DNA of 64,000 nucleotides from Catajapyx aquilonaris (taxonomy: Eukaryota): NCBI GenBank assembly GCA_000934665.2, contig JYFJ02000986.1, positions 1 to 64,000 on the forward strand, given 5' to 3'. The notes under the pieces are model-generated. The model was not told the origin of the DNA. It was given only the letters and a program-made list of their open reading frames with translations, and searched no databases. The position numbers and the translations under genes were made by a program. Positions 12,155-62,709 of this stretch are shown here, piece by piece; within the stretch, counting starts at the first letter, position 1; every line of letters starts with the position of its first letter.

Positions 12155-12911
12155 CAGTGGAGCATCGATTATCCGAACCCCGATAAACCGAACCATCGGT
12201 TAACCGAACGTTTTCGGGTCGGCAAAAAAGAGAAAAAGCGCGATTTAGCCACCAAAAAACGAGCCTCGGCTCTCAAACAAAGGAAATTGGCCTCCCCCCC
12301 TAAACTGTAGGACTGCTTCGTGTAAGGACAGTAAGGTATAACTACAGTATTTTTAAGACGTTCCTGTGACAGAAAATATACAGTTTTGTGGTTAATATCA
12401 CTGTTTCTTAGTTTCATATTTGCTCCTATGACGCCGGTACAATTTTTTCCCGTAAATATAATAATAATAATAATAATACGAGTAATAATAATAATTGTGG
12501 GTAATGCTTTCACCCCCAACCGGGGGTATATCGCATGAACCTTTATTTATTTTTGTTCAAGTTTCTCAACTCAACTTCGGTGCAAGTAAACAAGGAAAGT
12601 GGGTAAGGATAGGGATTTTCGGGGAGGGAACATTGGTGCAAGTGCAATGTCGGTAAAGGGGTCATGTGCTGTTCCCCAGGAGGCTAGGTTTCCAGACACC
12701 TCCTTGGTGCAGGTCAGAAACCCTCCTGACGCAGGTGAAAGGAAAGTTCACCGGGCGAGGATCGAACCTGGGGCCTTTCACACAGCAAGCCGAGACGTTA
12801 CCATCTCGGCCACCACACCTCCCCTTTTCCCGTAAATGATCGGTTATCCGAACAATCAGTTATCCGAACACCCCCTTGACAGACTCTGTTCGGATAATTG
12901 ATGCTCCACTG
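12155..12911. mobile_element. pogo/Tigger-like MITE interrupted by a SINE
   Basis: TA|CAGTGGAGCATCGATTATCCGAAC ... GTTCGGATAATTGATGCTCCACTG|TA, with repeated CCGAAC subterminal motifs. Confidence 0.82.
12458..12824 (-). mobile_element. tRNA-derived SINE, head type B, (TTA)n tail
   Basis: On the minus strand, A box TGGCCGAGATGG and B box GGTTCGATCC. Tail GGGGGTGAAAGCATTACCCAC followed by ATT repeats. Perfect 13-bp TSD TTTTCCCGTAAAT at 12445-12457 and 12825-12837. Confidence 0.85.
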
Positions 12912-13000
12912 TACTATACGCACACACATTGGTCTTGCATATTATAGCCTCAGTCATTTGACTATTTACAGAAATGTTAATCACTGCACCTAGGTATAAC

Positions 13001-13040
13001 ATACTATACTATACTATACTATACTATACTATACTATACT
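13001..13040. repeat. (ATACT)n pentanucleotide microsatellite
   Basis: Eight tandem ATACT units. Confidence 0.9.
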
Positions 13041-14100
13041 GGACAAGCCTTATACCTACTTTTCAATGGATCCAACGTCGACAGATAGCTCGTGACTATA
13101 TTAGAACTTGCTAACATCACTCAACCTTCATGCCATGGTGCTTCATGCTAACACATAAATGCCCTCTAAACACTCTGTGTGCCCCCTTCACCTCAACCTC
13201 TAAGGTCTGGTTGTATGTGCCCATATTAAAACGCAAATCTCCGATTTGATGTAATATCCATAATGCACAGAGTTTCTCTTTTGCGTCGATAAAACCAAGC
13301 CTATGGCGCTTCACTCACTCTCCTGCTGGGCCTCCAGCCGCGAGTGAGGGCAGCACCGCTATTCAACTAGAGGGTCGCAAGTTGCTCTACTCGGCTCTAC
13401 TGCACTATTAATTTGATCTGCCGCATTTTCTTGGTATCTATGGGCCAAGGATTTTGTCAAGATTATTCAATTTCCCAGCTGACAAATAAGTTAAATATAA
13501 CTGTATCATTTGATACAATTTGAAGCCCCTGTTCCTGATTCTCAACACCATTAATGAATTGATAGGCTGCTTATGTCATGTCAAATGTGTAGCTTACGCG
13601 TACAGTGGTGTCCAGTAATATTCCTCAAATTTTTATTTTCAAATAGTTCACTATATTTTAGGAGGCGGCCTCCAGAAGCGGCTGTCTTTGACGAACCCCA
13701 GAAAATTCTACTTTTTTAGTTACGAGTTGTATAGCTGAAAATTTGTTATTGCGATCATGCCATAATCAAGAGCTTAGGTACAGTATCTGTCATGATATAC
13801 GGAATTAAACCAAATCAGGCTCACCATTTGACCTAGAGCCTGATGAAGATTTGAAGATAGCCGAATTTGGCTTTTCCTGTTGCGAAGCGCAGGTTTTGAT
13901 CGGGAATATGACTTTCCTGATGTAGGAAAATTGCACCAAATGCACTGTACTCCCGATTATTATCCGTGCTAATGAATTCGCGGCTGTGCCCGGATAATCG
14001 GAAAACACGGATAATTAGAAAATGGTCACATGAAATCATAAAAACCATAAAATGAGCTATTCTGAGATTTTTAATTAACTACTGTACATAGTGTATGCCT

Positions 14101-14396
14101 CTTTATTTTTTAATTTTTTTAGTGTAACCCGTGATAGGGCCCGAGGCCCTCTTGGGGGGTGGAATACCACCATGGGGTGACTGGGAGGGGATGTGCAAAG
14201 TGCAAGTGCAATGTCGTTGCTTGGTCACTTTGTGAACTCCCACGGGTGGATTAGTCTAGCGGAGATTCCACCCGAGACGAATCCAGAGATGGACCAACTC
14301 TGCACGAGGTGAAGAGGGGAATCCCTGGCTGGGATCGAACCCGGGACCATAACATCCGTGGGCGAGTGCGTTACCGCAGCCCCACTCCGTCTCCCC
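14101..14396 (-). mobile_element. tRNA-derived SINE, head type A, poly(A)-type tail
   Basis: Head matches the copies at 41.3, 43.3, 49.7 and 61.9 kb (B box GGTTCGATCCC). 3' end is CCCTATCACGGGTTACAC followed by an A-rich tract. Confidence 0.8.
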
Positions 14397-14494
14397 TGCC
14401 TTTTTAATTAAGTTTAATAACAATAAAAAACTCACCATAAATGTTTAGTTGGTCTTCTGAATAAAGTCTGTTATATTTCTTTGTTTGTGAGATA

Positions 14495-17184: not shown

Positions 17185-19087
17185 ATTACACAGGCCTGCG
17201 AAATAACTCTTTTTATTTTTTCTGCACCGTTTTGTGTTTCTAATGTATTATTTCGATACGCTGAGTTCAGAAATGCCGAGCTTTTTCCTCTATCACGTCA
17301 GGTTTCTCCACAAAGTGAGGATAAAGATTCAGGAAAATCACACAGAAGATTATAGCAGAGTAAAAATGCTTTTTGGTTCAGGCCTTGATGGGGGATGAGT
17401 ACTGAGTAGGTTTGAGAAAAAAATATGTTTTTTAATGTTTATTTTTATTTATTTTTATTTTATTTACCCCGTGATACAACTCTTGGTCGTTATAGGGGGT
17501 GGCAGACCACCATACAGTTTTCTAATTATTTTTTCTTCGGACACCGGTGCAAGGATTACTAGGAAATAGGGTAAGGGTTGGGGGTTTTGGGGAGGGGACA
17601 CATGTGCAGGTGCATTGTCCAGCGGTGGGCCAGGTGCAGTCCCCCAGGAGGTCAGGGTGCCAAGACGCCTCCTTAGGCGCGGGTCACGACCCATTGACGC
17701 AAGCGAAAGGTTTGTTCCCGGGTGGGGATTTGAACCCGGGACCTTTCGCATAGCAAGCCGAGACGTTACCATCTCGGCCACCGTGCCTCCCCCAGAAAAA
17801 AATAGGTTACAAAGCCACGGCCATCTCCTTCAAGATGAACTAGATGGCATGAGTAGATACTTACACGTACTCGTGAGAAAAAAATGTTTTCTATGCACCC
17901 ACCCTACCGCGCGGTTCAGGTGTTGCCACATTAGAGGTTATAAATTAAATTTTAACATTTTTCTACTTTCTATGTTTCAATTTATCGTCGTTGACCTGAA
18001 ATATATATTTTTCTAAGCCAAATATTGGTTTGACACATTTTTATAGCAGCGAGCAACCAGACAGAAATTCTCAATTTGTGTCGAAACTGTACGTGATAAA
18101 AGTTTTTGCGTATTTTTCCCGAAATCAGCATCCAAAAATACGTAAGAAACACCTCTCACTTTGACGAAAAAAATTCATCGCAGGCCTCTGATATATATTA
18201 TAATATATATTATAATATATTATTTTCTCGCGAACCATGCATGACCCAGGCCTCAAACGTAACATACTGAACCTTGTGTCAGTCACAACTGAGTGGGTCA
18301 GAACAATAATGGCATATCCCACCCGAGGGTCGAATTTGAGTTTCTGGTGGCTGTGATTGCAAGATACATCAATGAATCAGTTCCATAAGTTGGAGCCAGT
18401 TTGGAGCCATACCTTTCTATTAAATCCACATTTACATTGATATGACTACATTAAAAAGTATTATTCTGCACACATTTAAACCTCGAATATCTCAAAAACA
18501 TTTGTGATTGGGATATGCCATTATTGTTCTGACCCACTCAACTAGTGTCACCAAATATGACTGATGTAACCCAAACACATCACTAATTGTTGAGGTCACA
18601 ATTCTTGGGCATGAGACTGAGCAAGTGACTAATGAAATGCTAAAAAAATTATTTTTGCATTTTAGAGGAAAACTAATTCCAGCGACGCATTCACCTGGTG
18701 TTTCTCTTTCTTTTGATGTATATGTTCATTGGGTTCTGATCACTTCCACTAACCGAAAAAAATTCTCCCAAAAATGCTTCATTTTCAGTCATTTCCGATT
18801 TTTTCCTCGTCATGGTATTGCGCAATATTTCATAAATTTTATAAGCAGCATTAAAGAATAGTTGAGTACATCTGTGATTATTTTGACCAAGATCCGAGAC
18901 GGTCTAGCAACATTTAGACCCACTTGATTCGGAAAGACCCCTAGTAAGTCGTTCAAAGTTTTAAAACGATATATCTCAAAAACTGTGGGTGATAGAAGAT
19001 TTTGCGTATTTTTCCCGTAATCAGCATTAAAAATACATAAGAAATACTTGTCACTGAAGAAAAAATTTCATCGCAGGCCTGTGTTAT
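17185..19087. mobile_element. Putative non-autonomous TIR element or compound repeat
   Basis: ATTACACAGGCCTGCGA at the left and TCGCAGGCCTGTGTTAT at the right. The ~85-bp right end is duplicated internally near 18105-18195. A perfect 32-bp IR lies at 18290-18321 / 18509-18540. Confidence 0.5.
17430..17793 (-). mobile_element. tRNA-derived SINE, head type B, poly(A)-type tail
   Basis: A box TGGCCGAGATGG, B box GGTTCAAATCC. Tail TATCACGGGGTAAATAAATAAAAA. 15-bp TSD AGAAAAAAATA[T/G]GTT at 17415-17429 and 17794-17808. Confidence 0.85.
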
Positions 19088-19316: not shown

Positions 19317-19610
19317 TTTTTTAATAGTTTTTTGGGTTTTTTTGTTACTCCGTGATAGGGCTCGAGGCCCACTTAGGGGGGAAGGGGAAGTTCCCAAGGG
19401 AGGGCGCCGTGCGATAGCCATTTCTGACATTCTTTAACACCAGACCTTTTCTCCTGGCCCCGAGCAGAGAAGGGAGTGCAATTCTGCTCCGGCATGTCGG
19501 GTGAAAATCGGAAAAAGACCCGGCCAAGCAGAGGTGACGGGAACGGGATTTGAACCCCGGCCTCCCGCTTGGCTGGCCAGTGGCGTAACCACTAGACCAC
19601 CATGCCGTCC
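19317..19610 (-). mobile_element. tRNA-derived SINE, head type D, poly(A)-type tail
   Basis: A box TGGTCTAGTGG, B box GGTTCAAATCC. Tail CCCCCTAAGTGGGCCTCGAGCCCTATCACGGAGTAACAAAAA. TSD TTTAAAATGC at 19307-19316 and 19611-19620. Confidence 0.82.
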
Positions 19611-25683: not shown

Positions 25684-25835
<152 letters not shown>

Positions 25836-26786: not shown

Positions 26787-26814
26787 GGGGGTGAAAGCAC
26801 TACCCCAGTTATTA

Positions 26815-26902
<88 letters not shown>
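26787..26902 (+). mobile_element. Extremely 5'-truncated retroposon: 22-nt tail plus (TTA)n
   Basis: GGGGGTGAAAGCACTACCCCAG followed by (TTA)n. Perfect 13-bp TSD TTTTAGTGCATTT at 26774-26786 and 26903-26915. Confidence 0.88.
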
Positions 26903-26904
<2 letters not shown>

Positions 26905-27469: not shown

Positions 27470-27891
27470 GTAATGAATGCTTCTATAGCATTGATGTGCT
27501 TCGGGATATCTTGGGTCACAGTGAAAACGAGTCAGTTTTAGGGCAATTCCACGAAAGGCGGCCATATTGTCCGTACGTAACGCAGGTTTTGCAGACATGT
27601 ACTAGCGTATTTTATTGTAACAATACCCACACATTACATGAAATGGATTAAGCATGCAGTGCATGCATCCTGGCATTGTTATAATAAAATACTCTTGTGC
27701 ACGTAGGCAACACTTGCGTTACGTACGGACGGCTGCGCCATGGAATTGCCCTTTATGTGTCTAACTTGTAAGTTCCTGCTGAGATCAGTTATTAATTATT
27801 TGATTATAATTCGATTTGGCCGGCTAGTTTGATCAGAATAAGCTCTTGATGACCAGTAAATGTATGAACGCGCATTCTGATTTTCTCTAAG

Positions 27892-28242
27892 GTGTGTGAA
27901 TGCAAATGGAAAGGTGGTAAGGAGAGCGTGTCTTGCGTGAACGCCAACTTCGCGGAAGTGCCTCCACTTCTGGATAGCGGTACGCAGGTGTTGGACCTGA
28001 GCGGCAATGGCATCCAGGTGGTGGAAAAGGACGCGTTCAGCAAGGCAGGTCTTCTCAACCTCCAGAGGGTTTACCTGGCCAGGTGCAAGATCAAGCAGAT
28101 GGATCGTGACGCCTTTAACCGGCTGACCAACCTGGTAGAGCTCGACCTGAGCTCCAACCAGCTGCCATATGTCCCTACGCACATTTTCGCATCTATTTCG
28201 GAGCTCAGGGAGCTCAAGCTCAGCGGAAACCCTATACAGAGA
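27892..28242 (+). CDS. kek3: kekkon-family receptor exon 2 (LRRNT and LRR repeats)
   Basis: Acceptor ttttctctaAG|GTG. Translation VCECKWKGGKESVSC...TQVLDLSGN...LLNLQRVYLARC...LTNLVELDLSSN...LRELKLSGNPIQR contains LxxLxLxxN repeats. Donor AGA|GTACGT at 28243, phase 0. Confidence 0.93.
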
Positions 28243-29126
28243 GTACGTACGTTCATGGAAATTAAAGAGCGCAGACGACAAGCTGGGAAGCTCAAACTCG
28301 TTTTCCATCTAGTAATTGTTTACTTCCACCCTCTTATCTAGTAATTTATTTTGGTCCATCCCTTCCAACAAACAGAGGCGACATGTATTCATGACTCGCT
28401 TCACAAAATATGAACAGCTTCCCGTCTTGGTGTCGATATTCTTTGGTGTATTTTAGTTACAATGGCCCTCCAATTAGCGCAGATCAAAGCGGTGGGGAAG
28501 CAAATGATATGCATTATATTGACAGCGTAATAAGCGGCGACACTCAAAGTAGTGTCAACGCTATCAGTAAGTTAACAATGTTGTAATCAAACCTGACAAA
28601 ACGGCAGTCACCGCGATATCGGGTTCAAAGAGTCCCTGTACGGTTGTTTGAAACCTGCCAGGAAACCCCGCCATGTTGACTTGTCGAGAGAGAAAAAAAG
28701 TTCCACAAACGACGTGACGGTATTTATTGATTACCAATATTACAAGCTGACCATGGATCGAGAATATAGCAAATATACAGCTGTCCGTACCAGGCGTAAT
28801 TATCGTAAGTAACGTGATTGCCGTAATCTTGACATTTGTGTTGAAAAGCAAGCTTCTGATTACTGTGAATAAATCTAGCTTATGTGGATTACAATCAACG
28901 GTACATTGCTGTCACATTCGATAGCATGTACGGCGTATGATATAACGGTTGTTATACACAGGATATTCTAATATGGCATTGCCAGTGTCAAAGTTTGAGT
29001 TCAACACGCAATACAAATTCCGGGATAATTGAAGGAATGGTTGTAATACCAAAGCCACCAAGATTTTGTTTTTCCCCAATCTTTGTCCAAGTCCGATAGA
29101 GTCAGTTAGCAATGATTGATGTTCAG

Positions 29127-29523
29127 GTGAGCAACAACGCGTTCGCCGTGGTGGCCCAGCTGGTGAAACTGGAACTGAGTGACTGCTCTATCGGCACTGT
29201 GGAATCCCGTTCCTTCCGAGGCCTGGCGTCCTTGGAGTGGTTGAAGCTGGACGGCAATCGCCTCCATACCCTTCCACACTCCACCTTCTTCCCATTGCGG
29301 AGCCTGCACGAGTTGGTCTTACACCACAACCCTTGGAACTGCACCTGTGACCTACGACCCCTCAGAGAGTGGATGGTCAAGAAGAATGTTCCCTACGGCG
29401 TACCCCCAGTTTGCGCATCGCCTCCCAGACTGCAGGGACTTACATGGGACAAGCTTGACCTGGATGACTATGCCTGCAAGCCAGGGGTACTCGAGGGACA
29501 AAACAATGCACAAGGAGTGCAAG
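29127..29523 (+). CDS. kek3: kekkon-family receptor exon 3 (LRRs and LRRCT)
   Basis: Acceptor gttcAG|GTG. Translation includes LVKLELSDC, LEWLKLDGN and the LRRCT NPWNCTCDLRPLREW...PPVCASPPRL...DDYAC. Donor G|GTAAGC at 29524, phase 1. Confidence 0.93.
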
Positions 29524-29633
29524 GTAAGCTCATTGGCTATTTTGAAACAACCATCTGCACTGACTTGACGGTGCTGTACTTGGCTCTTTGATTAAGTGTT
29601 GCTATTAACCCTGGATGACCCTTGTACCGGCAG

Positions 29634-30967: not shown

Positions 30968-31325
30968 TGTGGAGAGAGAAACAGTACGGCCGGCGACGTA
31001 TCTCCAAATGCGACTTCGAACAAGCGACCGAAGCATGGGGACTACCAGAGCGTGCCGACGATGGACACGGACCAGACCGACGCCAACGACGCCAAGATAT
31101 GGCTGGTTAAGCACGAGTTGGAAGCCAGCGTGACCGGCTCCAATCCCAGCGGAGGAAGCTGCGAGACCTTTCCGGATGACCAGAGGCACACCAGGCCCTT
31201 GGAACTGTCGTTGACCCCGGCCAGTGACACGCTGCCCTCGCCGGCCAGCATGGCCACCATCACCAGCGGAAAACCAGACGCACTCAGTCCTACTCAAAAC
31301 ATCACAACTCTTTCACGGCCGCAAG
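30968..31325 (+). CDS. kek3: kekkon-family receptor exon 5 (cytoplasmic, S/T-rich)
   Basis: Acceptor gtttcAG|TGT. GC-rich open frame CGERNSTAGD...HGDYQSVPT...SRPQ. Donor G|GTAATA at 31326. Phases match exons 4 and 6. Confidence 0.8.
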
Positions 31326-40927: not shown

Positions 40928-41006
<79 letters not shown>

Positions 41007-43331: not shown

Positions 43332-46300
43332 CCTCTAAGTACAGTATCCTGTACAGTAATTCCTGCCCACGGCCACTGATGTGGTGCATCTCAGAAAAGA
43401 GTAGAGTAGAAGTAATCGGCAATGTTCCGGTTCATTCTTGCCGGAATATCGATAGTTATCATTTTTCTAGTGAATCTAATGATAAATTAATTAAGCCCCT
43501 GGGGCAGATATTCCGTGCAAATATTTCCTTCGAAAAATATGGGCGAGAGACCGTGATTGTTTGCTCCGAAACCTTCGCACATTGCCTTCCTTTTTAAACT
43601 TTTTTTTTGAAACCCCTGGTGATGACGAGTTCGATTTTCCATTATGCATTTTCCTCTTTCTCGCACCCCGCTCCTCACCCCTACCTTATCTATTATCCCT
43701 ATTTTTATTTTCTCCCTTCGGGCACAGCACCTGGGGTGGGTAAATCTGACTCATTTTCCCAAGTTCAGTAATGCACAGTAAACCCTAAGGGGAATAGGCG
43801 AGAGAGACTGACGTACTACAAGTAGTACTTACATTGATTGATTATTAGCCCTTCTGAATCTCTTTCACTTACCCTAACAAAATTGGTAGCGCTCCTTACA
43901 GTATACTTCAGAGATTGAAGTCTACCCCATATAGTGCTTGTGAGAAAAGGAAATTACTCTTACTAAAATATATTAAATGCAGCTATAAGTTATTTCAAAA
44001 ATGTGCAGTTGGAATGCCTCTCCCTGGATTCCTCTGAAATAATCTGGTTCTCTGGAATCCCCATAGATTTCGTGGATTTAGCTGGATTGCTTTGCAAGAG
44101 TGTACCGGATTATTGGAGTCAGCATATTTCCAGAGAGCAAGTCATGCAAGAATAAAAGTGCGGGAACTTCTCCCTGGAAGCCCTCCTACCTGACACGCTG
44201 GATTACCTGGGTTTCTCTGGTAGCGTAGGCAGGATTCGCCGAAAGATTCCGCCCTTTGTCCCCGGCTTTGTCCATATTTTCTGAAAATAGAAATCCGATA
44301 TTTGAAGTGAGGTATACTGAACAGGATACATCAGAAATTCAGAATGGGCTGTTCAAACAGCAAAATATTGTACTTTCACCCTGTAATTGGTTTCCCTACT
44401 TGGAGACGAGAATATACAGTACGTATACACATTACCTCCTTTCCCTCTCTCCGCATTGCATTGGTGACCATTTTCTCGTAATATATGGAAAAGAAATTCG
44501 ACGATCACATTACATAACTCTGATGCTTGCGGAAATAATGTTTTCGTAATGTCGCTTCTCCAAGCTAGAACATTATTTTGTTAGATGTTTTGCTTTGAAG
44601 TCGGAATCCCAGACGAGGAAAAATGATAACCAATCCAGTCGGTAATTCGGACCATGAATCGGGACATTAATACTGTATTACAGCGAACTGTACGAGGAAG
44701 ACGCAGTGCAAGTGTTGTGCTATGACCAAAATTACATGCAATTTAGCATGGAAGTATAAGACACGAGGCCTAACGTTTAGTTTAATTCATGATTCCAATC
44801 GATTCCAATCTTCTGACATTTTCTTGCATACAGTTACATGAATATTGATTACTTGTACCGATATAAAGTATCTGTACTGTATAGATGGACCTCTAAATTA
44901 ATGTCATTAACTGACTCTGATTTTCAGCTATAAAATAAATAGTACCACTGCCCTGGGATTGGTCGGTAGTCAGCATCAGCATTCATGGAGGGCTGGGACA
45001 AGTCTGAGAAGGTTCATCCGCAATAGAAATTCATCAGACGGATGCCTGATGCTTACATCCCCCTTTTTTATTATTTTGGATGCGTGGGAGGAAGGGGTGG
45101 GAGTGTAACGATTTTCGGGTGTCTAATGTAAAATCAATAACCTTTCCTCCCCCGTCCCCTTTACCTCTACTACTCCTATATCCTCCAACCGATATTGACC
45201 GTAACCCTGACAGTTCGTTTTCACTTCAGACTTCTATCGGACCCTAGCTATTTTTTTTCTTTCTAAGAAGGGGGCAGGAGCAGGGGGCGGGGGTTGCGAG
45301 GGAGGGAAGGGGCAGGGGCGAGCAGGGGGTGTTCTGGGTCGGACAGGCTGATTGAACCTTTCCTTGGCTTTTTCATTGAGCATTGACAGGTCTAGGGGCA
45401 GTTTAGAATGGATTAGGGGGGAAATTGATGGAGTTGCTCCAGCAATTGTTCCTCAACCGATCTCTTGCCTCCAAGATCCCCAACGTGTTCAGGAAACTAA
45501 AAGTGTCACATAGTTTGGTAAATATTTCAAGAGTGATACAGCTGGCATCAAGACTGCAGGGCAAATGAATTTTATCAGATGTGTATAGTACGTAACTGTA
45601 GCATATAGCTTTATAGACCTATCGAGAAAAAAACTGATTTCAGAAGAAAGAAGAGTCGAATATCAGAAGGGCTCACAAAAATCAAGAATATGTGGAGGAA
45701 TCAAGATACAGGAGATTTAAGGTGATACATTTTTCTTTACCAATGATTATTTCTGTTTCCAGTTTCTCGGGTAAAAACAATTTCTCCTGCCTCGTAAGTT
45801 ACTGATTTTTAATACACATGTATGTAATTCAGTTTATTACCTACTTATGTGATCTCACAAACACAAAGACTTCGAAATCTGAGAAGGCACTTGTTTTATT
45901 TCGCGTATAATTAAGGTAAAGTGGCAAATTTGTACACGGGGTCATTTTATGCGACTTGGATAGTAGTGGTAAGGAAATGATGTGGCTGTTACACTTTTTT
46001 ACCAATGTATGTGTCCAAACACCAACCAGTGGGTGTAAACTAACGGGGATACAAACTTGCCTCGGAAAAAAAAACTGCGCCGGGGAAAGTTCACAGGCCG
46101 AGCAGGCTTTTGCGGTAAGTGGTCAGAATTAATTACATTAAGTTTAATGAACCAAGAATTCCTGCAAAATTGGCCTTACTAATATACGATGCAAAAATTT
46201 TATAGGCCTACGTTAAACTTGTAGTCAACTCGCACCAAACCACAAAAAAGTTAGCAACTCCGTCACGCTTGACCAATGTTGATGGCATGTGACTTGTCCG

Positions 46301-46535
46301 AAAGAGGAAGAATAGATGTTAGATCATAATATCAGAATTTCGACTCAAAGTCTCCCTGGAAAAAGGTCACCGTAAAGTCTTGACTGGGTGTACTGAAGGA
46401 AGTGCATAAATATAATTATTTCCCCTCGATTATTGAGTTTCCCCCTCAACCATACGTATATAAGCATCAACTCTGCTCGTAATTGGCTCATGGCTCCGAA
46501 AGCCAATTGTGAGAGAGTTTATACACTAATGGCAG

Positions 46536-46875
46536 AGGGCGACACGGTGGCGGAGTGGTTAGCGCCGCAGCCTTCCACCTCTAAGGTCCCGAGTTCGATC
46601 CCCGGGTTGGACGGAGTATTTTTTTATTATTTTTATTTTTATTTCAATACCCCTTGCTCAGTACATTACGTCCTGTGGGTTGGACGGAGTATGCTTATGT
46701 GGATAGAGTTTCGATGGGTTCTCTTCGTGTTCGCGTGGGTTTTCTCGGGGTTATCCCGTTTCCTCCCGCAATCAAAATCCATCACAGCGCAAGCAATGAT
46801 TAAAGGCGGTTATTCAAAAGAACTGATGATCCCCCTAAGAGGCGCAAGGGGCCTATCATGGGGTATCCATTACTA
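46536..46875 (+). mobile_element. tRNA-derived SINE, head type C with V-domain-like core
   Basis: A box TGGCGGAGTGG, B box AGTTCGATCCC. Core GTGTTCGCGTGGGTTTTCTCGGGGTTATCCCGTTTCCTCCCGCAATCAAAA. Tail CCTATCATGGGGTA. Degenerate ~17-bp TSD. Confidence 0.82.
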
Positions 46876-49387
46876 TTATACTCTAACGTCAGCCTACCAT
46901 TGAGGGCGGAATATCCCCGGTGTCACAATGTATGTGAATGGTAACAGGTGATAAATGTGTCAGTGTACTGTAGTCGGAAAAAAAAGAAGTACATTTGCAA
47001 TTTGGCATTAGATCCAGATGATTCGGGTAGTCGGGTTTTCCTATCTCTATAGTATACAGTATATGTCTTTGATTGGCATGTGTGATGCACTGTACATGTA
47101 GCGATTGTAGCCTATTAGAAGTAGGCCTATCCAATATTATTCCGGCACTGGATATCGAAACTTCATATATCATAATAGTGTACCGTCCCGACTTGCCTCA
47201 CTTCACCTTAATACTTGTAATACTATACGGTACACTTCATTAGGAAACGTTCTAAAATTAATAAGTGATAACTGCTGATGTAAATATTTTCGAGGTAAAT
47301 CGGAACTGATGATTATAGGTCTAAACACTGCGACAAATGTGCATTCTAAACAATTTGATAATATCACTGATATAACTTGCATGTTATGATTGCCTATATA
47401 CATAAATATTAATGCATTGTTGATTCTCAATATAGTATGGAGGAATTATAATTATAATATATTATGTAATTATTATTCCCCAGAAAAATACGTCCAAGAC
47501 AAATATCTACCATTTAATATGAATTGTTTTAATATAGTATAGGTCATGGTATAGGTTAAGAAACAATTCTTCACACCTTTAAAAGGAATGGTGTAATATA
47601 CAATAAAAGTTTTAAACTCTTTTTAGTGCAGACTAATTTTCTGACGATAATAACAGGCCTCCTTATATCCACTAATTTTAACGGCTTCAACTAAAGCATC
47701 AATATCAAACCAGGCATCTTTTGTAAGCATCTGTTTCTACTCTACTAATTACAAAACAACGGCAACAACTGTTTCCCAATTGGGACAGTGGACGAAGGAA
47801 AACGGAATTGCGGTTTGTAAGCGTCAAACGAGGTAATTAGAACATCTGGTTGTTCATTAATAGGGAGTGGAGGAGTTAGAGTTGAGGTTGTCGCAGTTCA
47901 TTCATCACGTTAACCAAACTAGACTGGAAATTGTTTTGCAAAACAGTGTCGGCACAACTGTCAAAACCCTTTTCCCTGACACATTGTTCTGGGTCACTTG
48001 GCAAAAATGGTACCTAAAGAAGTTTTGGTGTCGGTAAAAAGTATGCTAAAGGCCAGAGACGGGGCAGATGGAAAGTTTGCTTATGGAATTTTTTTTTGTA
48101 TATTTTATTCCGCACCTCGCTCTCTTCAAACAGAATGCCTAAACGCGTTATGACGTCATTCAGCCGGCGACTCCACCTCATCTGCAAGAACCGACTCATT
48201 TGAATTCCGCACAGGTTTTGGTGTTTCTTCTCTTTATTCTCCCAAGGCAGAAGGCAAAAATACAGTTCAAGGGCCTCCAACAACATATAGATACACCCTT
48301 CAAGCTGCTATCCTTTTTTCAAGTCTTTTTACGGCACCACTATTTTGGCAACGGAGCAAGAGGGCATGCTGACAATAAATTCCAAGTAATGCGACTTTGT
48401 ATTTTTATGAATACCGTTTTACTGATGTCACAGTTTTTCATCTGTAATCAAGACTTTGAAATGACGTCCACTTTTTCCACTGGCAGTTTACTTGAAGTAT
48501 CTTTTGCGGAATGTACTGACCACGATGCACACAGCCAGCTAGGACACCACCAAAAACATACATTTCAAGACACGATTCTGGGTGCTTCTTACAGCCAGTG
48601 AACATGCTGTTTTGCCTGCCCAGCTCTGCAATGCGGGTCGCCGCGTGTGCCTAGGGGCAGGGCGGTGTGACTATTGTAGTCGTCTACCTTGTTACAGGTT
48701 GATCTCTCGACATTTCTCTCCCCTACATTTTAATAGACTTGGTTTGAGGCAACAACGAGTATGCTGCCGACCGGACGACATACCAGTAAGAAATACCCTG
48801 TTTAGTGTTAGCATACATGTGCCTACATTTTGTTGGCACATATGCACCAGCAATTTATCTCATCGACGCAACGCGTTTTTGCAGGTAAACAGTGTAATAA
48901 AATCGAGCCAGGTCAATATTTGCCAGACTTGCTCAATCTGCTCCTCGGCAAAAGAGAAATTAATTTCCAGATAGCGATATGGCGGACCATATCAGGGCAA
49001 TGAATCGGCAAATGACGTGTAATTGCCTCCTAATAGGCCATCCGAACGGCCAATCACTGCTCGCCCCTGTCGGCTCTTCCGCCAATATCTCGGGGAAAGG
49101 AGGCAATTTAACATGCCATTAACATATTTCGCTACCAGAAAACGTGACTTGAAAACATCTGAAAGTGTTTCGCTTCATTCTTCTCGATACAAAGCTCTGA
49201 AGTGAGTTACAGTTCAATTTATTACTGCTGTGCTTAAGGATCCAATAGTGCGTCATGGCCTTTCTTTTCATTGTTGTTACGGCACCACTAGTTGTTCAGT
49301 AATGACCAAAAGAAAACGCTATTTGGCGGATGGCTGTCCATCTATGATTTTTATGTAGGCTAATGATTTTATTTAGATTTTTCTTTG

Positions 49388-49428: not shown

Positions 49429-49433
49429 TTATA

Positions 49434-50033
49434 CAGGGTGTATCAGAGTCACGGGTCAAGCGAGTGCGATGGGGTGGGGAAAAAATCGTAGGTGGCGACA
49501 ACCCCGGTCGGTTTTATAAAACAATGAGAAATACGGCAGTAATCAATTTATTTATTACGGCCGTACCGCGTGACGTCACGTCCTATCTGTTTTGAATCGA
49601 GTCGGGCTGGCTGGCAAGAGTCAAGGTAAGAGGGAAGTGGTTTGAACCTGGTTGAACGGGTTTTTAGCCTTGCGGGTTGCACTGAAAAAACTAGACTAGG
49701 GAGGCGGAGTGGTGCTGCGGTAACGTATGCGCCCACGGATGTTAAGGTCCCGGGTTCGATCCCAGCCCGGGGACACCCCCTTCATCTCGTGCAGAGTTCA
49801 GGGTCACCTCTGGCTTCGTCTCGGGTGGTATATCCACAGACTAAACCACCCGGGGGAGTTCACTAAAAATGGCCACATTAAGACATTGCACTGCACCTTG
49901 CACATCCCCTCCTGTCATCCTGCCCGTGGGCCCGGGCGATTCGCTCAAGGTTCCAGCATTGTACTGCATTGTACTTCAAGTATAATAAAGGTCCGTGCCG
50001 CATACCCTATATAGGGTCAGGCACTACCCAAGG

Positions 50034-50123
<90 letters not shown>

Positions 50124-50370
50124 GCACTGAAAAACTAGAAAAAGGCAGTGCAACCCGCAAGGCTAAAAACCCGTTCAACCCGTGCCGTGGTTCAACCACT
50201 GCCCTCTTACCTTGACTCTTGCCAGCCCGCCCGACTCGATTCAAAACAGATAGGAAGTTACGTCACGACGTAGACCGTAATAAATAAATTGATTACTGGG
50301 GGGTTGTCGCCACCTACGATTTTTCCCCACCCCCTCGCACTCGCTTGACCCGTGACTCTGATACACCCTG
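49434..50370. mobile_element. Palindromic Tc1/mariner-type MITE (CAGGGTG termini) with a SINE in its loop
   Basis: TA|CAGGGTGTATCAGAGTCACGGGTCAAGCGAGTGCGA ... TCGCACTCGCTTGACCCGTGACTCTGATACACCCTG|TA. Confidence 0.88.
49696..50121 (+). mobile_element. tRNA-derived SINE, head type A, long (ATT)n tail
   Basis: B box GGTTCGATCCC. Tail GCACTACCCAAGG followed by (ATT)n. TSD TTGCACTGAAAAA(A)CTAGA at 49677-49695 and 50122-50139. Confidence 0.9.
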
Positions 50371-50814
50371 TATAGGTTATAATGTCGAAGTGAAAATGCC
50401 AAGAACTGAATGTAGATCACATATGACTTTACGTAATTATTCATTAGACACACGTTTATTTTATACGTCATTGAATGTCGTATAGCCTAATGAGCGAAGA
50501 AAAAAATCGACACAAATAATATTATTTGTATGAGATTTTTGTTCTTCCTCATTATTTGTCTCGCAGGCCCCCTACATTGATGCTGACTACTCCCTTTTTT
50601 GTGGACACGTCGTGATAGCTTGTTTGTTTGTTTTATTGCAAGATTCCCATTGCAAACCATTAGAGGCTATCAGAGCTGGGATCATCTCAAAAAACTATTG
50701 AGACTGTAATATTAACGTGTACTGTACGTTATTGTACGCAACATGAAATACTGAATTTGAATGTGTTCATTATGTTATCTTGCTCTCAGTAGCATCAGAG
50801 GAACATCAAGCATA

Positions 50815-51009
50815 GGATGATGAGAGGGGGAAGAGAGATCTGTGGATTGTGTGTGGGAATATGGGAGAGCCCCAAGAAAATCGCGCGAATACGAAGAGAA
50901 CCCATCGAAACTCTATATCATGGGTATCCGCTGTCCGACCCGGGGATCGAACTCAAGACCTCAGAGGTGGAAGGCTGTGGCGTTAATCACTTCACCATAG
51001 TGCCACCCT
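50815..51009 (-). mobile_element. Diverged SINE, head type C
   Basis: Reverse complement matches the 46.5-kb copy (GAAGAGAACCCATCGAAACTCTAT; GGGGATCGAACTC; AGAGGTGGAAGGCTG). Confidence 0.72.
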
Positions 51010-54000
51010 CTGTGTCATCAGACATTTCCGGTACCGTACTTTCTTGTCCAACATTTCAAGTGGGACGTCTTCACTCATCCTCCAAATAGTCCATAACTTT
51101 CATATAGTGACTTTCAGCATACGAAAATGGTCAGGCGAGAATACAATGGCAGACACAGTCGAAGGCTTGGCGGGGAAAGTGCTCAACAGAGGCTTACAAA
51201 ATCTGGCACCATGGTTCGAAAAATGCTCGATCGAAATGGCGTTCGTGTGCAGCAGTAGCTAAAATATGTACAAGGGTTGGTCAAATGAAAAGTGCAATAA
51301 TTTTTAAAACCCGCCGTTTGGAATAACGTTCGAAAGGGACAGTTGCAGATTCATACGGTACTCATAACTTCAGGCAGTTTATCGATAGGTGGACAGGGAG
51401 TTGGACATCACCGGTTTTTAAAATATTTCAGTCGCAATCACGTGACTGCATGAGTTTTGTTCTTTTTATGTACCAAATCGAACACTTTTTAATATTATCT
51501 TCGGTGAATTTCTGAAGGAATGCAAACATCAAACAGATGCAGTCAATTTCACACTACACCTAACGACGAACTGACTGATGTTAGGCGAACCATACGAGTC
51601 CACAAAAGAACTCTCAAACGGCTTCCAAACAGAGAGCTTTTAAAAATTTTAAAGCCGCGTTTTCATTTTCATTTGATCAAGCTATGTACCGGTACTGTAA
51701 TGTGGCTCTGTTGATATTTGACGGGATATTGTTTATAATAATAGCCCCCCCCCCTCCCATGGCCACAGCCCAACGGGGTAAAAATATATACAGTAAACTG
51801 TAATAATAATAGTCCAAATAATACTTTTGAAACTCATTTCTCTGTTGATCATATATGTTTAATATTTAATGGACGCATTCATTGCTAGGCCCAACATTGC
51901 CAAAAATTTTGAGATTATCCCATTGGGAGAATTTCATATGGAACTGCTGTCCTAGGAGGTCAATGGTTGAAGCTTTCATGTCAGGATGAACCATCCTGCA
52001 CATGTAATAAATAGGGTATTCTATTCCACTGTTACATTAAGGTTTTGATAACCCCCAAGAGTAAAAATATAGTAAATAACTTAAATAACAGCTTGGGGTC
52101 AAAAAATTGCTAACTAATAATGCTATAGCTAATAATGATATTAATTGGAATATGCTGTTTAGGCATACAGGATATGTCGCACTTACGGATGAGCCTATCC
52201 CAAGTGGATTCTTAGGCCAAAACAAATTGTAACATGAAAATGTATAAGAAATGTCGCCGCATTTACTGGTAAATATGTAGATACTGTATTACACATTTGG
52301 TACAGGAAGACATCTTCAGACGTGCACCTTAATCCACATGATATATTGCACTCACATCCTGCTGTAACTTATATGAATAAATTGTCGGCAACTAGCTTGT
52401 GAAGCCAAAATACCCCACCACTTCTCCTCCTGTACAAAGGGAACATTATTTTTTCTAGAGGATAGGAATCTATGTTTTCCAGAATCATTATGAAACACCC
52501 TGTATTTTAAGGTGGGCATAATTATTACGCAACCTACTGATATGCAGCCAGCAATAGCTGTTGGCATTTTTCCATCCCATTGGACTATGCCACATGTCAT
52601 GAATGACCCCATTTTCAGAGGCCTTTTATCAATTGCTCTAAACTTTGACGGCCCTCAGGGCAGCCCATGGGCGTTTAGGAGCGAGTGATCTACAATCGCT
52701 GGACCAGCATTTTCTTCTATTTTAATCAAAAGTAGAGAAGTATCTAAATGTCTTGTTGTTTCCTTGCTAGACATACCTATCTGTGTGATAGACCTACTCT
52801 GGCCGTTTTATGAGTACACAGCTTGATGAAAATAATGAAAACTACAAGTTGTAGTTTTCATTTTTTTATATTCAAAACTCACAGAATCTGGTTAAAGATG
52901 GCGGAGGCCTCCTTTTGACATTCATCACTATAAAGAGCGCCGTTATTCGATCTGGTGCATAGAAATGACAAACACATCGAAATACTGCGGGTACGGGTAC
53001 ATGCAAAATGTGGACATGCTATGTATTTTGCACACACGTATTTGCGACTGGCATGAAAATATTCAGATGTCACAGCTCGATTTGCCTCGCCTTGCGCCTA
53101 TTCGACTATTTTCACGTTTCTGAATTTTTTTACATCACTCGTAGACAAGTACTGATGGGTATACTGTACAGGGTAGAATCATATTGTGCATGTACTGTAC
53201 TCGCCGAAAGATTCGATGGCTTTTGTACAGTACTTTAATGCAAAAAACGCTTTCTTTTATTCTTTGGTGCATGTTTGAAGAGGTGCATCCAAGTAGCAGA
53301 TACTGTACGACTCATATTTCATCTACAGAAAAACTGTCCGAATTTATGAGTATCTTATGAATTTGCAATTGTCTCTTGCGAGCAGCATCCCAAACTGCGC
53401 GTTTTTTTACGTTTGGCATTCCTTTCGTTTTCATTTGAACAGCAATCGTATATTACAAATGGCAGGGTTGAGGGCAACTGGGAATATTTTAGCTTCTGGA
53501 ACTCACAGAAAACTATAGTCTTGGCGAAGGTATTTAATGTCGCGGTGTTTAAAATAAAACCTGCTGAGTTGAAGTTTTCCTCGCACTTATCCTGGAAAGT
53601 CGTGTAAAAGGAACTTTGGGCAAAATATCGGCAATCGGGTATGGAACGGGTATTTCCACAATGACGGACACTTAGCTACACTTCCGCGGTATGCTGTTAA
53701 GAAGGTACGTGGGATTTTCTCGGTCCAGCATTCCGGAGCCATTCAGTGCCCTCCCTTTTTTTTGGCAAATGTATCCTTACTGGGTCTGGCTTAGGATAAA
53801 AGCCGCCCCCCCCCTCCCCCCAAAAAAGACGTCTGCGAGACAAACGGTGGACGGATATTGCGTTTTCCCGCCCTGCAAAAATCCAGGGCTTCTGGATGCT
53901 GATAAGGCGGCATGTGTCGCTATTGGAATCCAATCGAATCTCCTACGAACAGAATTAGGTTTCGCCAGGATTCGCCCTTTTTTTTGCAAACCTTCCGGCA

Positions 54001-55946
54001 AAAAAACGGCCATTCTCACTTTTTCGGTGCCTTTCAACACGTGTTGTTTTCATATTGGCTCCTGGAATTTGTGTACAAGTCCGACGATAAATCCAGCCCC
54101 GCTTTGAAAATGGGGTGGAGAAAGCCGGTGGAAGGCGGGCGGTGCCATGTTCCGTGACTAACTTACTCCTTTTTTGTCGGCCAGCGTTTCCAGATGGAAT
54201 GCAAGTAAGAAAAATCTATATGCATCCGGGCTCTTGAGTTATATCATACATTTTCTAGGGCACGTAGGGAAATAAGTTTCAATTTAAATATTAAATAATT
54301 TTGTAATACCTCTTTTTTTACTTGAGACAATAGTTACATTAAATGCTATTCCACTCCAAGCAGGGGATTTAGCTACACGTCACTTGATAACAGCTAAAAC
54401 AGTTACACAGTCGGGCCCATTGTTGCCAAGTTATCCAGAGAAAGCTAGCATTTATTTTTTCTCCTCCTCCATAGCTGCTGCGGAAACAATGAGTTGAAGC
54501 ATAAACCTAGGTGGGATTTAGTGCAAGGAGCAAAGGCCGTTGCCTTTTCCGAGCCCCGCCCCATTGTACAATGGGCTTTCAAAGTGTTCTCCGAATAATC
54601 CAATTGCAACTTTCCGGTTTAGGAGAGGGAGGGTGGGGGAGTGCAGGAGGTAGGGAAGGGGGGGGGGGGGCGTGGGAGTAGAAGTTTTCAGGCTGCCAGA
54701 GGGAAATTTCTCATCAGGAACAAGTGGAGCGGACTTCTACGCCCGTTTCACTCTCTTCATTAATATTAGACAGTGAGAGGTAACAGACTGACTTCCTCTC
54801 TGCTCGACATCTGTGATCACTCTGCAATCTCAAATGCTTTCAAGGCGTCGGGGCGACAACAGGGGTTTCCGAAGAGGTATAATGCACTGCACGGGAGAAA
54901 TGTCGCTGGTGTTGTAAGGGGGCTTCAGCACACGCATGTGCCTGCGCATGCACAGTTTATCAGTGATCAGATGCATCATGTGGCATGAATATATTGCCTC
55001 TGTGTCCAGAATCTCACCAGAATGTCATATAATGGCTTTTATGTAACGGGTTTTAACGGTTTTCCTGTAACGGCCGATGTTTTTTTCCTGAAATCCCTCG
55101 GTAATATAGTAATCTCATGAATTCCGTCCCTCCGGAGGTTGCTCTTTACTTTCCGACCCCGTAAGTCCCTGGACGGATGTACACTTTCATATTGCAGCCT
55201 GGCTTCCCCGTTCTTCGCCGAGACCACTTCTTTCCTGAGTCTCCCTGTATATCGATTTGGCCAGTGGGCTGGGTTGCCTTGTGGCTGCTACATCTCTTCA
55301 TTACAAACAGTTAGAGAAAATAGTGCAACAGATGAATAAGTAATCAGGATATACAATCATGATGAGTCTAAACTCCAGATCAATCTCCCACTGCACTGGT
55401 GGCTCTAGGAGGCTCTTGGTACAAAAGATGCCATAATTGTAGTAATGAGAAATATCAAATATCCAATCGTTTACGACGTAGATGACAATGACCTCAACGG
55501 GTGGCTAATGGAATATAATCTATAATCATGTTTATTGAGGCATGAACATCTCTGGTCTTCACTTGTGGTGAGTTCAGTGGCACGGAGTTCAGCCTCTGGG
55601 GCATAAACATGGCTTTAAGTAGGTGGGAAGTCATGGATACTATGTTAATCATAGAACATGGGCTTCCCTCAGTTTATAAGACTCGTTCAGTGAACAACTT
55701 TCATACTTATGTCCTTCTATGAGGAGAGACGATTTTATTGTTCATATGTGGTTGGACATCAGCTTGTTCGCATTTCAGTTTTACAAGGTACCGGTACCCC
55801 TATAAGGGCCACTTGTTTGAAATCCTATGTCAAATCCCTCATATTAACGTATAGGCATTCACATTACCGGCATTAGCGATTAGCCGACATAATCAGTGAG
55901 TTTCCTCTTTTGCTTTCTTACAACAGGCCTAAATTGGTGTTACTCA

Positions 55947-56411
55947 CAAGGGAAGTGTCTGTAGGGCCATCGGCCAATCGGCCCGAAAATGACACTAGGG
56001 GTAAATCGCAGGCCAGAAATTCATTGGTGAAAGTAAAAAGTTGCATTAGCCAAGCGTTTTCGAGATATGGGCGACTATAGGTGCCCGGCAAACCTGCTCG
56101 GTGACAATGGGGCGCATTCGGCAGAAGAAATTATAAACAGTNCCCCCCCCCCCCTCCCTCGTCTCGGAGCATCGTTTTCTTTTTCGTTCTTCCCCAACAC
56201 CGTTTATCACCGCATATCTTCCCTTTTGCAATCAACAGGAATAAATAAACAGCTTGCTGGGAAGTGCATTACTTTTTTTTTCTTCTGCCGATGCTCGAAA
56301 ACGGTTGGCTAATGTGACTTTTTACTTTCACCAATGAATTTCTGGCCTGCGATTTACCCCTAGTGTCATTTTCGGGCCGATTGGCCGATGGCCCTACAGA
56401 CACTTCCCTTG
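55947..56411. mobile_element. Foldback MITE, CAAGGGAAG termini, 3-bp TSD
   Basis: About 117-bp near-perfect TIRs with TCA on both sides (55944-55946 and 56412-56414). Confidence 0.85.
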
Positions 56412-56554
56412 TCAGTTCCTTCTGAATGGTTACTTTTCTATGGCAGTAGTTCTAATGGGCTCATTCCCCATCAAAATGCATAGATATTTCACTTCCGTAG
56501 AATATTAGCAACTGATATTTTTTTCGTAACCACCAAAACTTCTTAAGTTATATA

Positions 56555-59801: not shown

Positions 59802-60092
59802 GCTGTGGGGACGTGAAAATTCCACTTTTCGAAGCTAGTGTAAACTAACCTAACCTAACCTAACCTAACCTACCCTACCCGACCCTACCTAAACTACCCT
59901 ACCCTCACTCATCTAGGCTGAGAAAAATGGACTTTTGTGAAACCCTACGAATGAAAATAGTAGGGACATGTCCCCACAATTTTTTTTACGTCCCCACTGT
60001 AATAGTACACAGCGCGTGTTTTTTTAGTGGGGACACATGTCCCCACAGCTATAGTAAAATCACAAAAACACACAAACTTCCGTCCCCTGAGC
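59802..60092 (-). mobile_element. Second copy of the GGGGAC / (CCTAA)n MITE
   Basis: Reverse complement of 23203-23566, flanked by TTA / TAA. Confidence 0.75.
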
Positions 60093-61918
60093 TAATGCAA
60101 GACCTGTACAACTGTCTCAGGAGGAGGTCAAACTTTATCCTGGGCGAATTGAGTTGGGGAGAGACGATATGGCGGGGGGATGGGGAGAAGGTCCTGCCAC
60201 ACGGGTAAGGGTAAGCCTCTCTTTCTTTTTGGAGGTAGTCCAAATAGATCTCCTAACAAGCTGCGGATGTTCCATCCTCCATTCATTCCATCTGTCGCTT
60301 CAGACCACAACTGTTTCAAATTTGGCAAAATCCAGATGGTCACCAGATTGCGATATGTATAAGTTTTTATGCATTTTGTTCGCAGCTGTCCTTCCATATT
60401 ACCAGGAAGTAGAAAGAAATTGAACCTCTTTAAATGTCTGTTATTACAAATAGTTTGTACCGCGCCTTCACTGTATATCGGTGTGGGGTCGAGGTTTTCA
60501 TTAGTTGTCTACGGTCAGCATGAAAAAAAAATAATGTAATTTACCCTGACTCACCCGTGACAGCTTTTTTGAGAATTTCCCCGACAGTTGGTCCATAAGC
60601 TAATCGGAGATTTTCTCATTGATTTGCAGTCACACAACCGGATTCTAATGCCAGCTACTCTAGAGTCACAGCTTTTAATGCCCTTGCACAACTAGTCATG
60701 AAAGTTCGTTCATAAATTATGTGGCTCATTTTTGGAGAAGGGGATGTAGGTTAGGGTTACATAATTTACGTCACATGACACTACATTATTTGTGGCGTTG
60801 TCGGAATAATGTCAAACACACTATAAATATGGATAGGCCTTTGTGACACGGTAATGAGGAATCAGGATTAAGAATTTATTTATCAAGGATGAAGTGATAC
60901 CGCTACATGGTAATACAGTGCGTAATAATTCCCTACATAATTACGTAGGTATAGAGCCTCAAAACTGCAGCAAGACCCTTTTGGGATTCATGATCAATTT
61001 GTCATTCCGCAAATTGTAGCGATCAATTTAACAGTAATATTTTAGAAAGGGTGTCGAGAGTGTTATGGAAATAAATATATTTTTGCCAGTTTTATGCTAA
61101 CAAGTTGGGACACATTGGTGCTTTATACACGAGTAGTCTTATGTTTGCGAATAAAAATAGTCCAAGTATCACTAAACTGCTGACGTAAGTAAGTTCTCTC
61201 ACCTTCATGTGATCCAGATAAAAAAACACTATACACAATTAATTTTCTGACTAGGGATATTTTACATACCAGTTTTGTAACAATTGCATATTTTTTTGTG
61301 CAGCGGGGCTCTCTCCTCTCTTGTTTCAACGGGCTATAACTCAGCATCCACCTTCACCTTTTGCAAAGGCAAGAACTTATTTTTTCGAGGTTACTGAGAA
61401 AAGGACTAACAGGTGGGAGTAGTTGATGAAATAAGTTCTGCAACAGGAGAAGTCATTATTTATTCTACTATGTACTTAGTCAAGGGCACAGTCTTGTCCT
61501 ATGGTCATTATCCACGACCCTGTTCCTGCGAACTTTGAGGAAAGTGGAACACAATAATTTATTGCATGACTCGAAAAGAAAAACTGTGACAACGACACGC
61601 ACGTAGACTACCGTACCGTTTTTCGAGCCAAAATTTGAACCGCAAAATTTGATGTCCACGAATGTGGCAGGATGATGAATAAGATTATTGCTTTTTATTT
61701 TATATTTTTGTAAGATTTACAAAAGCCTCCAGGAAGAAAATGGATATGGGCAGGCACCTCGCTCGCGACCAGCCCCCGGACACCTCCCCTACAATCTTAT
61801 CTTATCTCCTGCCGGGGCGTTTTGCATGAGGTGCTCACCTGAGAGCGCCATGAGACCTTTCACTGCACTGATATGTGGCGACCCTACCGGACTACGCTGA
61901 ACTTTATAGGTACGAAAG

Positions 61919-62438
61919 TGGGGAGACGGAGTGGCGCCACGGTAACGTGCGCGCCCACGGATGTTAAGGTCTCGGGATCAAATCCCGCGCGGGGACACCC
62001 CCTTCATCCCGTGAAGAGTGTGGGTCGTCTCTGGCTTCGTTTCTGGGTGGAATATCCAATAGACAAATCCACCCGGGGGAGTTCACAAAATGACCTTGTA
62101 CAGTACTGGCCAATAATCGAGGCAACGACTAGCGACATTTTACCGAAGCGGCAGAAGAAGGAATCGAAGATAAGCATGCTAGAAGCCGGGCGAGCAAGAT
62201 TCCTTCTTCTGCCGCTTCGAGAAAATGTCGCTAGTCGTTGCCTCGATTATTGGCCAGTACTGTACCGCATTGCACTGCACTTTGCACATCCCCTCCTGTC
62301 ATCCCCTATCGCTCGCGGTACCCGGGCGTTATGGAAAAGGACCAAAAATGTAGCTGTACACCTAAAAGCGAAATAAAGGTATCGTGCCAGATGCCCTCAA
62401 TGGGCGGCGCACTAACCCCAATTGTTATTATTATTATT
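61919..62438 (+). mobile_element. tRNA-derived SINE, head type A, (TTA)n tail (tail resumes near 63329)
   Basis: Head GGGGAGACGGAGTGGCGCCACGGTAAC. 14-bp TSD TATAGGTACGAAAG at 61905-61918 and 63343-63356. Confidence 0.85.
62101..62262. mobile_element. Palindromic TA-flanked MITE inside a SINE
   Basis: TA|CAGTACTGGCCAATAATCGAGGCAACGACTAGCGACATTT ... AAATGTCGCTAGTCGTTGCCTCGATTATTGGCCAGTACTG|TA. Confidence 0.88.
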
Positions 62439-62538
62439 AAACTAGCGCACCCGTAGCCAAAATTTGGCAATACCTGCAATGAGGAAGACAATGGTAATGA
62501 AAAAATTGAATGAGAGGGCTCGCTACGGGTGCGCTAGT

Positions 62539-62709
62539 GTGGATATAGTTTCGATGGGTTCTCTCCGTGTTCGCGTGGGTTTTCTCGGGGGTTCTCCCGT
62601 TTCCTCTCACAATCAAAATCCATCACAGCAAAGGCAATGATTAAAGTCGGTCAATTAAAAGATGATCCCCTAAAAAGCTCAAGGAGGCTTATCACGGGGT
62701 ATCCATTAT
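62539..62709 (+). mobile_element. 5'-truncated SINE type C (V-domain-like core and tail)
   Basis: Collinear with 46698-46872; ends TATCACGGGGTATCCATTAT. Confidence 0.8.

Follow-up and report, generated by a model that had tools for sequence, protein, structure and literature searches.

Two heads, two tails and all four combinations: tRNA-derived SINE families of Catajapyx aquilonaris, with one tail shared with a resident LINE subclade

The exchange of modules between short interspersed nuclear elements (SINEs) follows a published model (PMC5499810, PMC5804259), and reciprocal sets of heads and tails are already known. Joining varied heads to LINE-type hairpin tails is an established means by which SINEs retain access to the reverse transcriptase of a partner element. 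In the accessible text on the Snail-domain SINEs of Littorina saxatilis, the families Lsa_3 to Lsa_6 join each of two 5' parts to each of two 3' parts, with one central block in common (Matetovici et al. 2016, PMC4758252). The HCD-tRNA SINEs of bivalves, as presented in the available sections of PMC11481361, have several partners among the long interspersed nuclear elements (LINEs), which they match over 35-61 bp at 72-95%, and are described by a 'mosaic' model. Tail exchange is also recorded, in the accessible part of that account, for the RTE-related SINEs WALLSI2, ERE4B, IdioSINE2 and HaSE1/HaSE3 (Kojima 2018, PMC5786205). The available text of PMC5804259 refers to Yadav (2012) for SINEs recombining frequently as they retrotranspose and gives three hypotheses for the conserved middles of SINEs, none of them demonstrated. 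Here we describe a comparable set of tRNA-headed SINEs in Catajapyx aquilonaris, based on a stretch of 64,000 nucleotides (positions 1-64000 of contig JYFJ02000986.1; hereafter the window) and on the whole short-read assembly GCA_000934665.2 (285.6 Mb in 20,583 contigs), on all of which the genome-wide counts were made.

The elements are 300-430 bp long, non-coding and dispersed, with 1539-2928 first-look candidates genome-wide for each query. They have a tRNA-like head with A and B boxes, are short and of high copy number, and combine a target-site duplication (TSD) with a simple-repeat or A-rich 3' end, as SINE2 (tRNA-derived) elements do. An earlier, sequence-only reading of the window had proposed that four heads (A to D) are combined with two 3' tails (T1 and T2). 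This held for heads A and B and was overstated for C and D, since T1 was absent from all 46 C rows and all 34 D rows of the automatic table, in which these two heads carried T2 or no recognisable tail. The head-by-tail matrix is therefore two by two for A and B only, and all four of its combinations are amplified lineages. Exact patterns were found in at least 302 places for the A-type T1 core (some double-counted), 721 for the A body with T2, 1115 for the B body with T2 and 75 for the B body with T1, and the reversed controls gave 0 in each case; these counts are lower bounds, their ratios are rough because the patterns were unequal in strictness, and a related family with another head (E, described below) may have contributed to the B-body matches. 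The best 30 loci for the A head at 49.7 kb in the window had T1 wherever the tail was readable, while the best 30 for the A copy at 14.1 kb had mostly T2 and no T1; loci matching D and the B type of 17.4 kb had T2 tails. The junction of B body and T1 at 12.5 kb was covered at 40 scored places, itself included, over 176-207 of the 207 query bases at 87-100% identity.

Most copies also have their own TSDs. A TSD of at least 9 bp, with AT-only duplications excluded, flanked 131 of 198 copies versus 17 of 3944 mismatched flank pairs, and by class it was present in 46/61 copies of A+T1, 15/33 of A+T2, 1/2 of B+T1, 32/40 of B+T2, 11/31 of C+T2 and 26/31 of D+T2. The discordant combinations are thus genome-wide families of 75-1115 exact-pattern copies, and the family counts, the copies of the 12.5-kb junction and the TSDs together rejected the explanation of mixed forms as singletons or adjacent insertions. 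Among copies met incidentally beside other loci, head A had T1 in 7 and T2 in 6, and head B in 1 and 12, respectively, in a small table that includes miscalls (the 61.9-kb copy scored as T2, the 46.5-kb copy counted twice and a doubtful copy in locus L119). An unbiased 200-kb sample of the largest contigs (L241-L260) held one C copy only, so that no head-by-tail table could be drawn from it. SINE density was uneven, with this single copy per 200 kb of the largest contigs, 12 pieces in the 64-kb window and about 60 copies encountered incidentally in the sequence flanking other loci. The SINEs were often nested head-to-head or tail-to-tail in each other's A/T-rich spacers or tails (L075, L090, L045 and L055), an arrangement that would put different modules side by side.

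Concerning the heads, a B box was found in all five (A-E), and the A box lay at its canonical position in B, C, D and E and was looser in A. For heads D, B, C and A, relaxed ARAGORN runs called a tRNA in 31 of 32, about 27 of 38, about 11 of 29 and 2 of 79 cases, respectively; with the default cut-offs of ARAGORN and Rfam, no head passed as a tRNA, and an Rfam tRNA match (25.8 bits) was obtained for head E only. RNA polymerase III (Pol III) transcription of these elements from an internal A/B-box promoter would be in keeping with such heads. Head E belongs to a fifth tRNA-headed SINE, of about 430 bp (L098:49-480), in which it is followed by a B-like middle module and T1; its middle scored 82 against that of B (shuffle maximum 38). 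The window contained no Rfam match at the gathering score, which led us to reject tails or bodies as ribozymes or a known RNA family; six loci gave chance-level matches only, and a phage collection search returned no match.

The two tails are not variants of one. Their best cross-score had a median of 20, where shuffled T1 gave 18 and comparisons within T1 gave 82, and a single common tail was accordingly rejected. Both fold into an outer stem that leads, through an internal loop, to an inner hairpin, which is variable. Six of the seven pairs of the T1 outer stem were kept in 20-22 of 22 rows, and the remaining pair was the same in 18 and compensatory in 3. Of the distinct sequences, 17 of 36 for T1 and 46 of 74 for T2 had an inner stem of at least 5 bp, versus 15% of shuffles. 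A tail of a T1-like variant type (T1') was also seen in L023 (minus strand, about 2020-2300) on a different upstream sequence that was neither the A nor the B body, with no open reading frame (ORF) seen upstream.

The reverse transcriptase (RT) search scored 150 of 929 candidates; 22 non-LTR (lacking long terminal repeats) loci from it, 40 extension regions and 6 endonuclease-led regions were examined, and about 35 non-LTR hits were left unread. The elements at 19 LINE loci ended, 30-300 nt beyond the ORF2 stop, in a nested hairpin that resembles T2 and a tract of the (TAAA)n type. When 55 RT rows were placed on a quick tree, one clade (SH-aLRT 93) within a radiation of 49 rows took in 19 of the 20 T2-labelled rows. 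The T2 cores of the SINEs scored 23-35 against these LINE ends (shuffled, about 16), with 32 of 36 columns in the best pair, whereas SINE T1 cores scored 16 against the same ends, equal to the shuffled value. T2 is therefore shared with a resident LINE subclade in both sequence and fold, which bears out for this tail the expected match to LINE 3' ends of the same assembly. The ORF2 of the LINE in locus L150 has APE and RT domains, no RNase H and a C-terminal C-x2-C...H...C motif, and from this combination we tentatively take the T2 clade to be RTEX-like (RTE-X). Homologues were 24-35% identical and carried no clade names, and neither their names nor the available text of PMC11203168 was informative for naming the clade. 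The wider RNase-H-less radiation (L171-L210 and L142-L170; 49 of the 55 RT rows) contains subclades with different nested hairpins and different 3' repeats, namely (TAAA)n, (TTA)n, (AAAC)n, (TGAAA)n and (TCAA)n.

For head A, a tree of 84 heads required 3 tail-class changes (bootstrap 2-4), as against a shuffled mean of 24.8. One T1 variant was common to A and B copies, and the spacers of B+T1 took at least three forms, a hint at more than one origin of this combination. Within the A+T1 class, 44 young copies carried 12 tail types (of 16, 8, 5, 5, 2 and 2 copies, and six singletons), which were 25% apart on average; head distance was 0.051 within and 0.053 between tail types, and head and tail distances were uncorrelated (rho 0.04). 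Among pairs with heads within 1% of each other, 46 of 60 differed in tail type; 30 of the A+T1 loci had been selected for head similarity, which raises the number of close pairs and not the mixing. A 3-nt insertion in the head was strongly linked to a marker about 40 nt off (V 0.75, p<0.001, n=44) but showed no linkage with tail type (V 0.29, p=0.42, n=36), both of its states being present in all four main types, and the marker closest to the tail was partially linked (V 0.52, p=0.002). The link between insertion and tail was likewise missing in 20 copies that were not head-selected (n=16, p=1.0). Head-tail linkage is thus lost in the assembly, which suggests that recombination among the young A+T1 copies is ongoing and hints at tail swapping that is recent and frequent.

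We consider it highly probable that these tRNA-derived SINE families evolve by module exchange, T2 deriving from the resident LINE subclade and T1 most likely from another LINE. From an internal promoter formed by the A and B boxes, Pol III would make the SINE RNA, and a LINE reverse transcriptase recognising the two-tier 3' stem-loop would copy it into new sites. The TSDs and simple-repeat ends are observed; the use of a LINE enzyme, and a stringent recognition of the hairpin by ORF2p, would fit these sequence features. In this scheme T2 would have been taken from one subclade of the RNase-H-less APE-RT LINE radiation, and T1 would most probably come from the 3' end of a second LINE, the existence of which we judge likely. 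The tails most likely move when the reverse transcriptase switches templates, whether both are SINE RNAs or one comes from a LINE, within the common middle block or the A-rich spacer, and the same process appears still to reshuffle tail variants among near-identical A heads. A more far-reaching version, to which we give only tentative credence, regards the SINEs as one recombining population, in which template switching would be so frequent that young copies combine a head of one lineage with a tail picked from a persistent pool of variant hairpins; switches would occur in the shared middle block, and the pool would mirror the radiation of resident LINE families. If true, this would offer a natural test of whether middle domains persist as recombination hotspots.

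Several observations weigh against module exchange with two LINE partners. The variable inner part of the SINE T2 was only modestly closer to the LINEs than geometry-matched scrambles were (median 0.71 vs 0.65; similarity of at least 0.75 in 22/78 vs 45/780), and 20 of the 22 best inner matches fell on one LINE family, L193, so that there is little ground for supposing that T2 was acquired from many different LINE families. Covariation was seen in only 1 of the 7 pairs of the T1 outer stem, because the pairs are mostly invariant. The decoupling of head and tail is based on 36-49 copies from a short-read assembly, half of them head-selected. Finally, a T1-ended LINE was sought without success in the 22 RT loci, 40 extension regions and 6 endonuclease-led regions, with 150 of the 929 RT candidates scored and the roughly 35 non-LTR hits unread, and in contigs from the same DNA sample. 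A search led by the tail pattern was likewise unsuccessful: its 30 loci, three duplicated ones included, were 27 full-head A copies, two 5'-truncated A copies and one other truncated copy. Of the two LINE machineries in the sequence-only reading, one thus has its partner subclade, and since none of about 60 loci supplied a T1-ended LINE, we infer the second from the form of the tail only.

It is conceivable, if rather doubtful, that one machinery serves both tails, T1 having evolved within SINEs or come from an extinct LINE and being accepted by the same LINE radiation, since each of the two tails consists of nested hairpins that precede a simple repeat. In keeping with this, no T1-ended LINE was seen in the loci examined, several sister LINE families in the radiation do end in other nested hairpins with (TTA)n, and TSD lengths are alike in both tail classes. 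Locus L150 (G000:C4241, about 3300-3500) also fits, since there an intact-looking ORF2 LINE is followed by T2, an A-rich tract and then, directly, a headless T1 with (GAT)n(TTA)n; this is the only T1 that adjoins a LINE end, the same LINE family in L147 lacks it, and the tandem could be either a swap intermediate or a truncated insertion. However, T1 is at shuffle level against both the T2 LINE ends and the SINE T2, the sampling of LINEs behind the missing partner was partial, and the T1 copies are very young (heads 98-100% identical), which suggests a living LINE partner.

The other two alternatives concern the fine-scale mixing of tails. An unlikely one is that there were few old class swaps and that the mixing arose by ectopic gene conversion between genomic copies instead of template switching; only about three class changes on the head-A tree and a linkage that falls gradually along the element, with no single breakpoint, would agree with it, and the available text of PMC4758252 lists non-allelic recombination as well as template switching as candidates. 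The tail types, however, form multi-copy clusters (16, 8, 5, 5, 2, 2) in which both head haplotypes recur, so the recombinants must have gone on to amplify. Quite improbably, the reassortment could be an artefact of short reads that cannot be phased across an identical middle block: the assembly is fragmented into its 20,583 contigs, sites about 40 nt apart are strongly linked whereas linkage is gone at more than 130 nt, and no contig of the same DNA sample spans the element or the whole stretch of 12.4-12.9 kb. Against it, 15 of 17 checked rows have a TSD of at least 9 bp, which implies both flanks of one locus, and the 5' flank is about 100-140 nt away from the head markers, with the tails near the 3' flank. 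An artefact also fails to explain class-level families of 75-1115 copies, and one 663-nt contig of the same sample likewise links T1 to a B body.

In the window itself, self-BLAST and reading by eye located twelve SINE pieces, and the places and head and tail classes of all nine elements listed earlier, and of the 62.5-kb copy, were right. Head B is combined with T1 and a (TTA)n end at 12458-12824 on the minus strand (T1 core 12496-12544; TSD 12445-12457/12825-12837), and with T2 and an A-rich end at 17426-17793, also minus (TSD 17415-17425/17794-17804). The A copy with T2 (about 14125-14174) and an A-rich end lies at 14116-14400 (minus), with a weak, AT-only TSD of 9 bp (14107-14115/14401-14409). 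The middle block common to A and B was confirmed as 17/17 identical positions between the 14.1- and 12.5-kb copies, although it is short and, with local scores of 36 (shuffle maximum 32) and 34 (shuffle maximum 36), lies on the border of the shuffled range. The D copy with T2 (19317-19610, minus), whose head was tRNA-Gly/Val-like in relaxed ARAGORN, has a 10-bp TSD at 19307/19611. A+T1 copies lie at 40928-41331 on the minus strand, with (TTA)26 (TSD 40914-40927/41332-41345), and at 49699-50123 on the plus strand, a young copy with (TTA)30 and a TSD of at least 13 bp (49677/50122). Two further A copies carry the distant variant T1': one at 42998-43333 (minus), with a deletion in the tRNA part and a possible TSD (42989-42997/43350-43358), and one at 61920-62439 (plus), interrupted by a 169-bp palindromic insert (about 62098-62266), for which a TSD was sought and not found. 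The T1 sequence quoted before applies only to the 40.9-kb copy, a tail-only copy at 26.8 kb and, nearly, the 12.5-kb copy, and not to those at 43.0 and 61.9 kb. Most copies do have their own TSD, with the 61.9-kb copy lacking one and the 14.1-kb copy having a weak one.

Family C is represented by a plus-strand copy with T2 at 46530-46876, which has a 10-bp TSD with one mismatch (46520-46529/46877-46886) and an insert of about 70 bp after the B box. At 62538-62709 (plus) lies a 5'-truncated copy with the C body and T2, as had been read, and no tRNA head. T2 in this family usually ends in CCA(TTA)n and not in the A-rich end described for T2. Two pieces were absent from the earlier list: a 5'-truncated, tail-only T1 insertion with (TTA)n at 26787-26902 (plus; TSD 26774-26786/26903-26915), and a C head with a partial body and no tail at 50843-51012 (minus). 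The insert of the 46.5-kb copy (46619-46692) has a 16-bp direct repeat at both sides, and its T-rich part resembles a reversed A-rich tail. The 49.7-kb copy lies within an inverted-repeat element (49430-50374) that resembles a miniature inverted-repeat transposable element (MITE) and has ends of the CAGGGTGTATCAGA type; further inverted-repeat elements occur at 10018-11226, 42158-42839, 55942-56416 and 63343-63515. The 169-bp palindrome at 62098-62266 is near-perfect and also MITE-like, with relatives that flank SINEs in L126 and L231. Besides repeats, the window contains a gene for a protein with leucine-rich repeats (LRR), immunoglobulin (Ig) domains and a transmembrane segment at 27868-34225, presumably 'kekkon-like', with LRR and Ig exons at about 27.9-30.3 kb and ORFs at 30929-31342 and 33494-34225 that may be further exons; such a gene by itself indicates that the host is an animal, probably an arthropod. 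About 16 kb past the window end lies an RNase-H-bearing, R1-like LINE (L262, G000:C399:80085-83400), the 3' end of which is not T1.

As a kind of element, these SINEs are ordinary. The literature search yielded no published account of these families and none of a pairing between a SINE and an RTEX LINE, a weak negative given that Repbase, Dfam, SINEBase and supplements lay outside it; the accessible texts of PMC3747384, PMC9191728 and PMC3716655 showed no matching SINE family, and the pairing with an RTEX-type LINE would possibly be unreported. The apparent ongoing reassortment among near-identical heads might be the only part of note to specialists: the exchange of modules is usually inferred from old consensus sequences, and here it is visible among copies with 99-100% identical heads, with the LINE clade identified for one of the two tails. 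A long-read linkage map of these families could directly test the recombination-hotspot hypothesis for SINE middles.

An experimental parallel may exist in Entamoeba, in which Yadav et al. (2012) reportedly obtained recombinant EhSINEs. Frequent SINE-SINE recombination during retrotransposition, as in that system, would by analogy yield the linkage decay seen here, although that case is an induced experiment in a protist and the Catajapyx case a genomic pattern alone. To judge from the available parts of the respective reports, the bivalve HCD-tRNA SINEs are alike in joining the same head and body to different LINE-derived tails and in having homologous tails across SINE families, and differ in that their partners are CR1, CR1-Zenon, L2 and Nimb and were compared across species (PMC11481361). 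Tail replacement, and one tail on different heads, are shared with the SINEs of Kojima (2018, PMC5786205), where the accessible text terms tail exchange occasional. Closest of all, as far as the consulted text of PMC4758252 goes, are Lsa_3 to Lsa_6 of Littorina, which likewise form reciprocal head and tail sets within one genome; the Catajapyx families differ from them in sequence and host group, in having one tail tied to a resident LINE subclade, and in carrying a dozen tail variants on near-identical heads.

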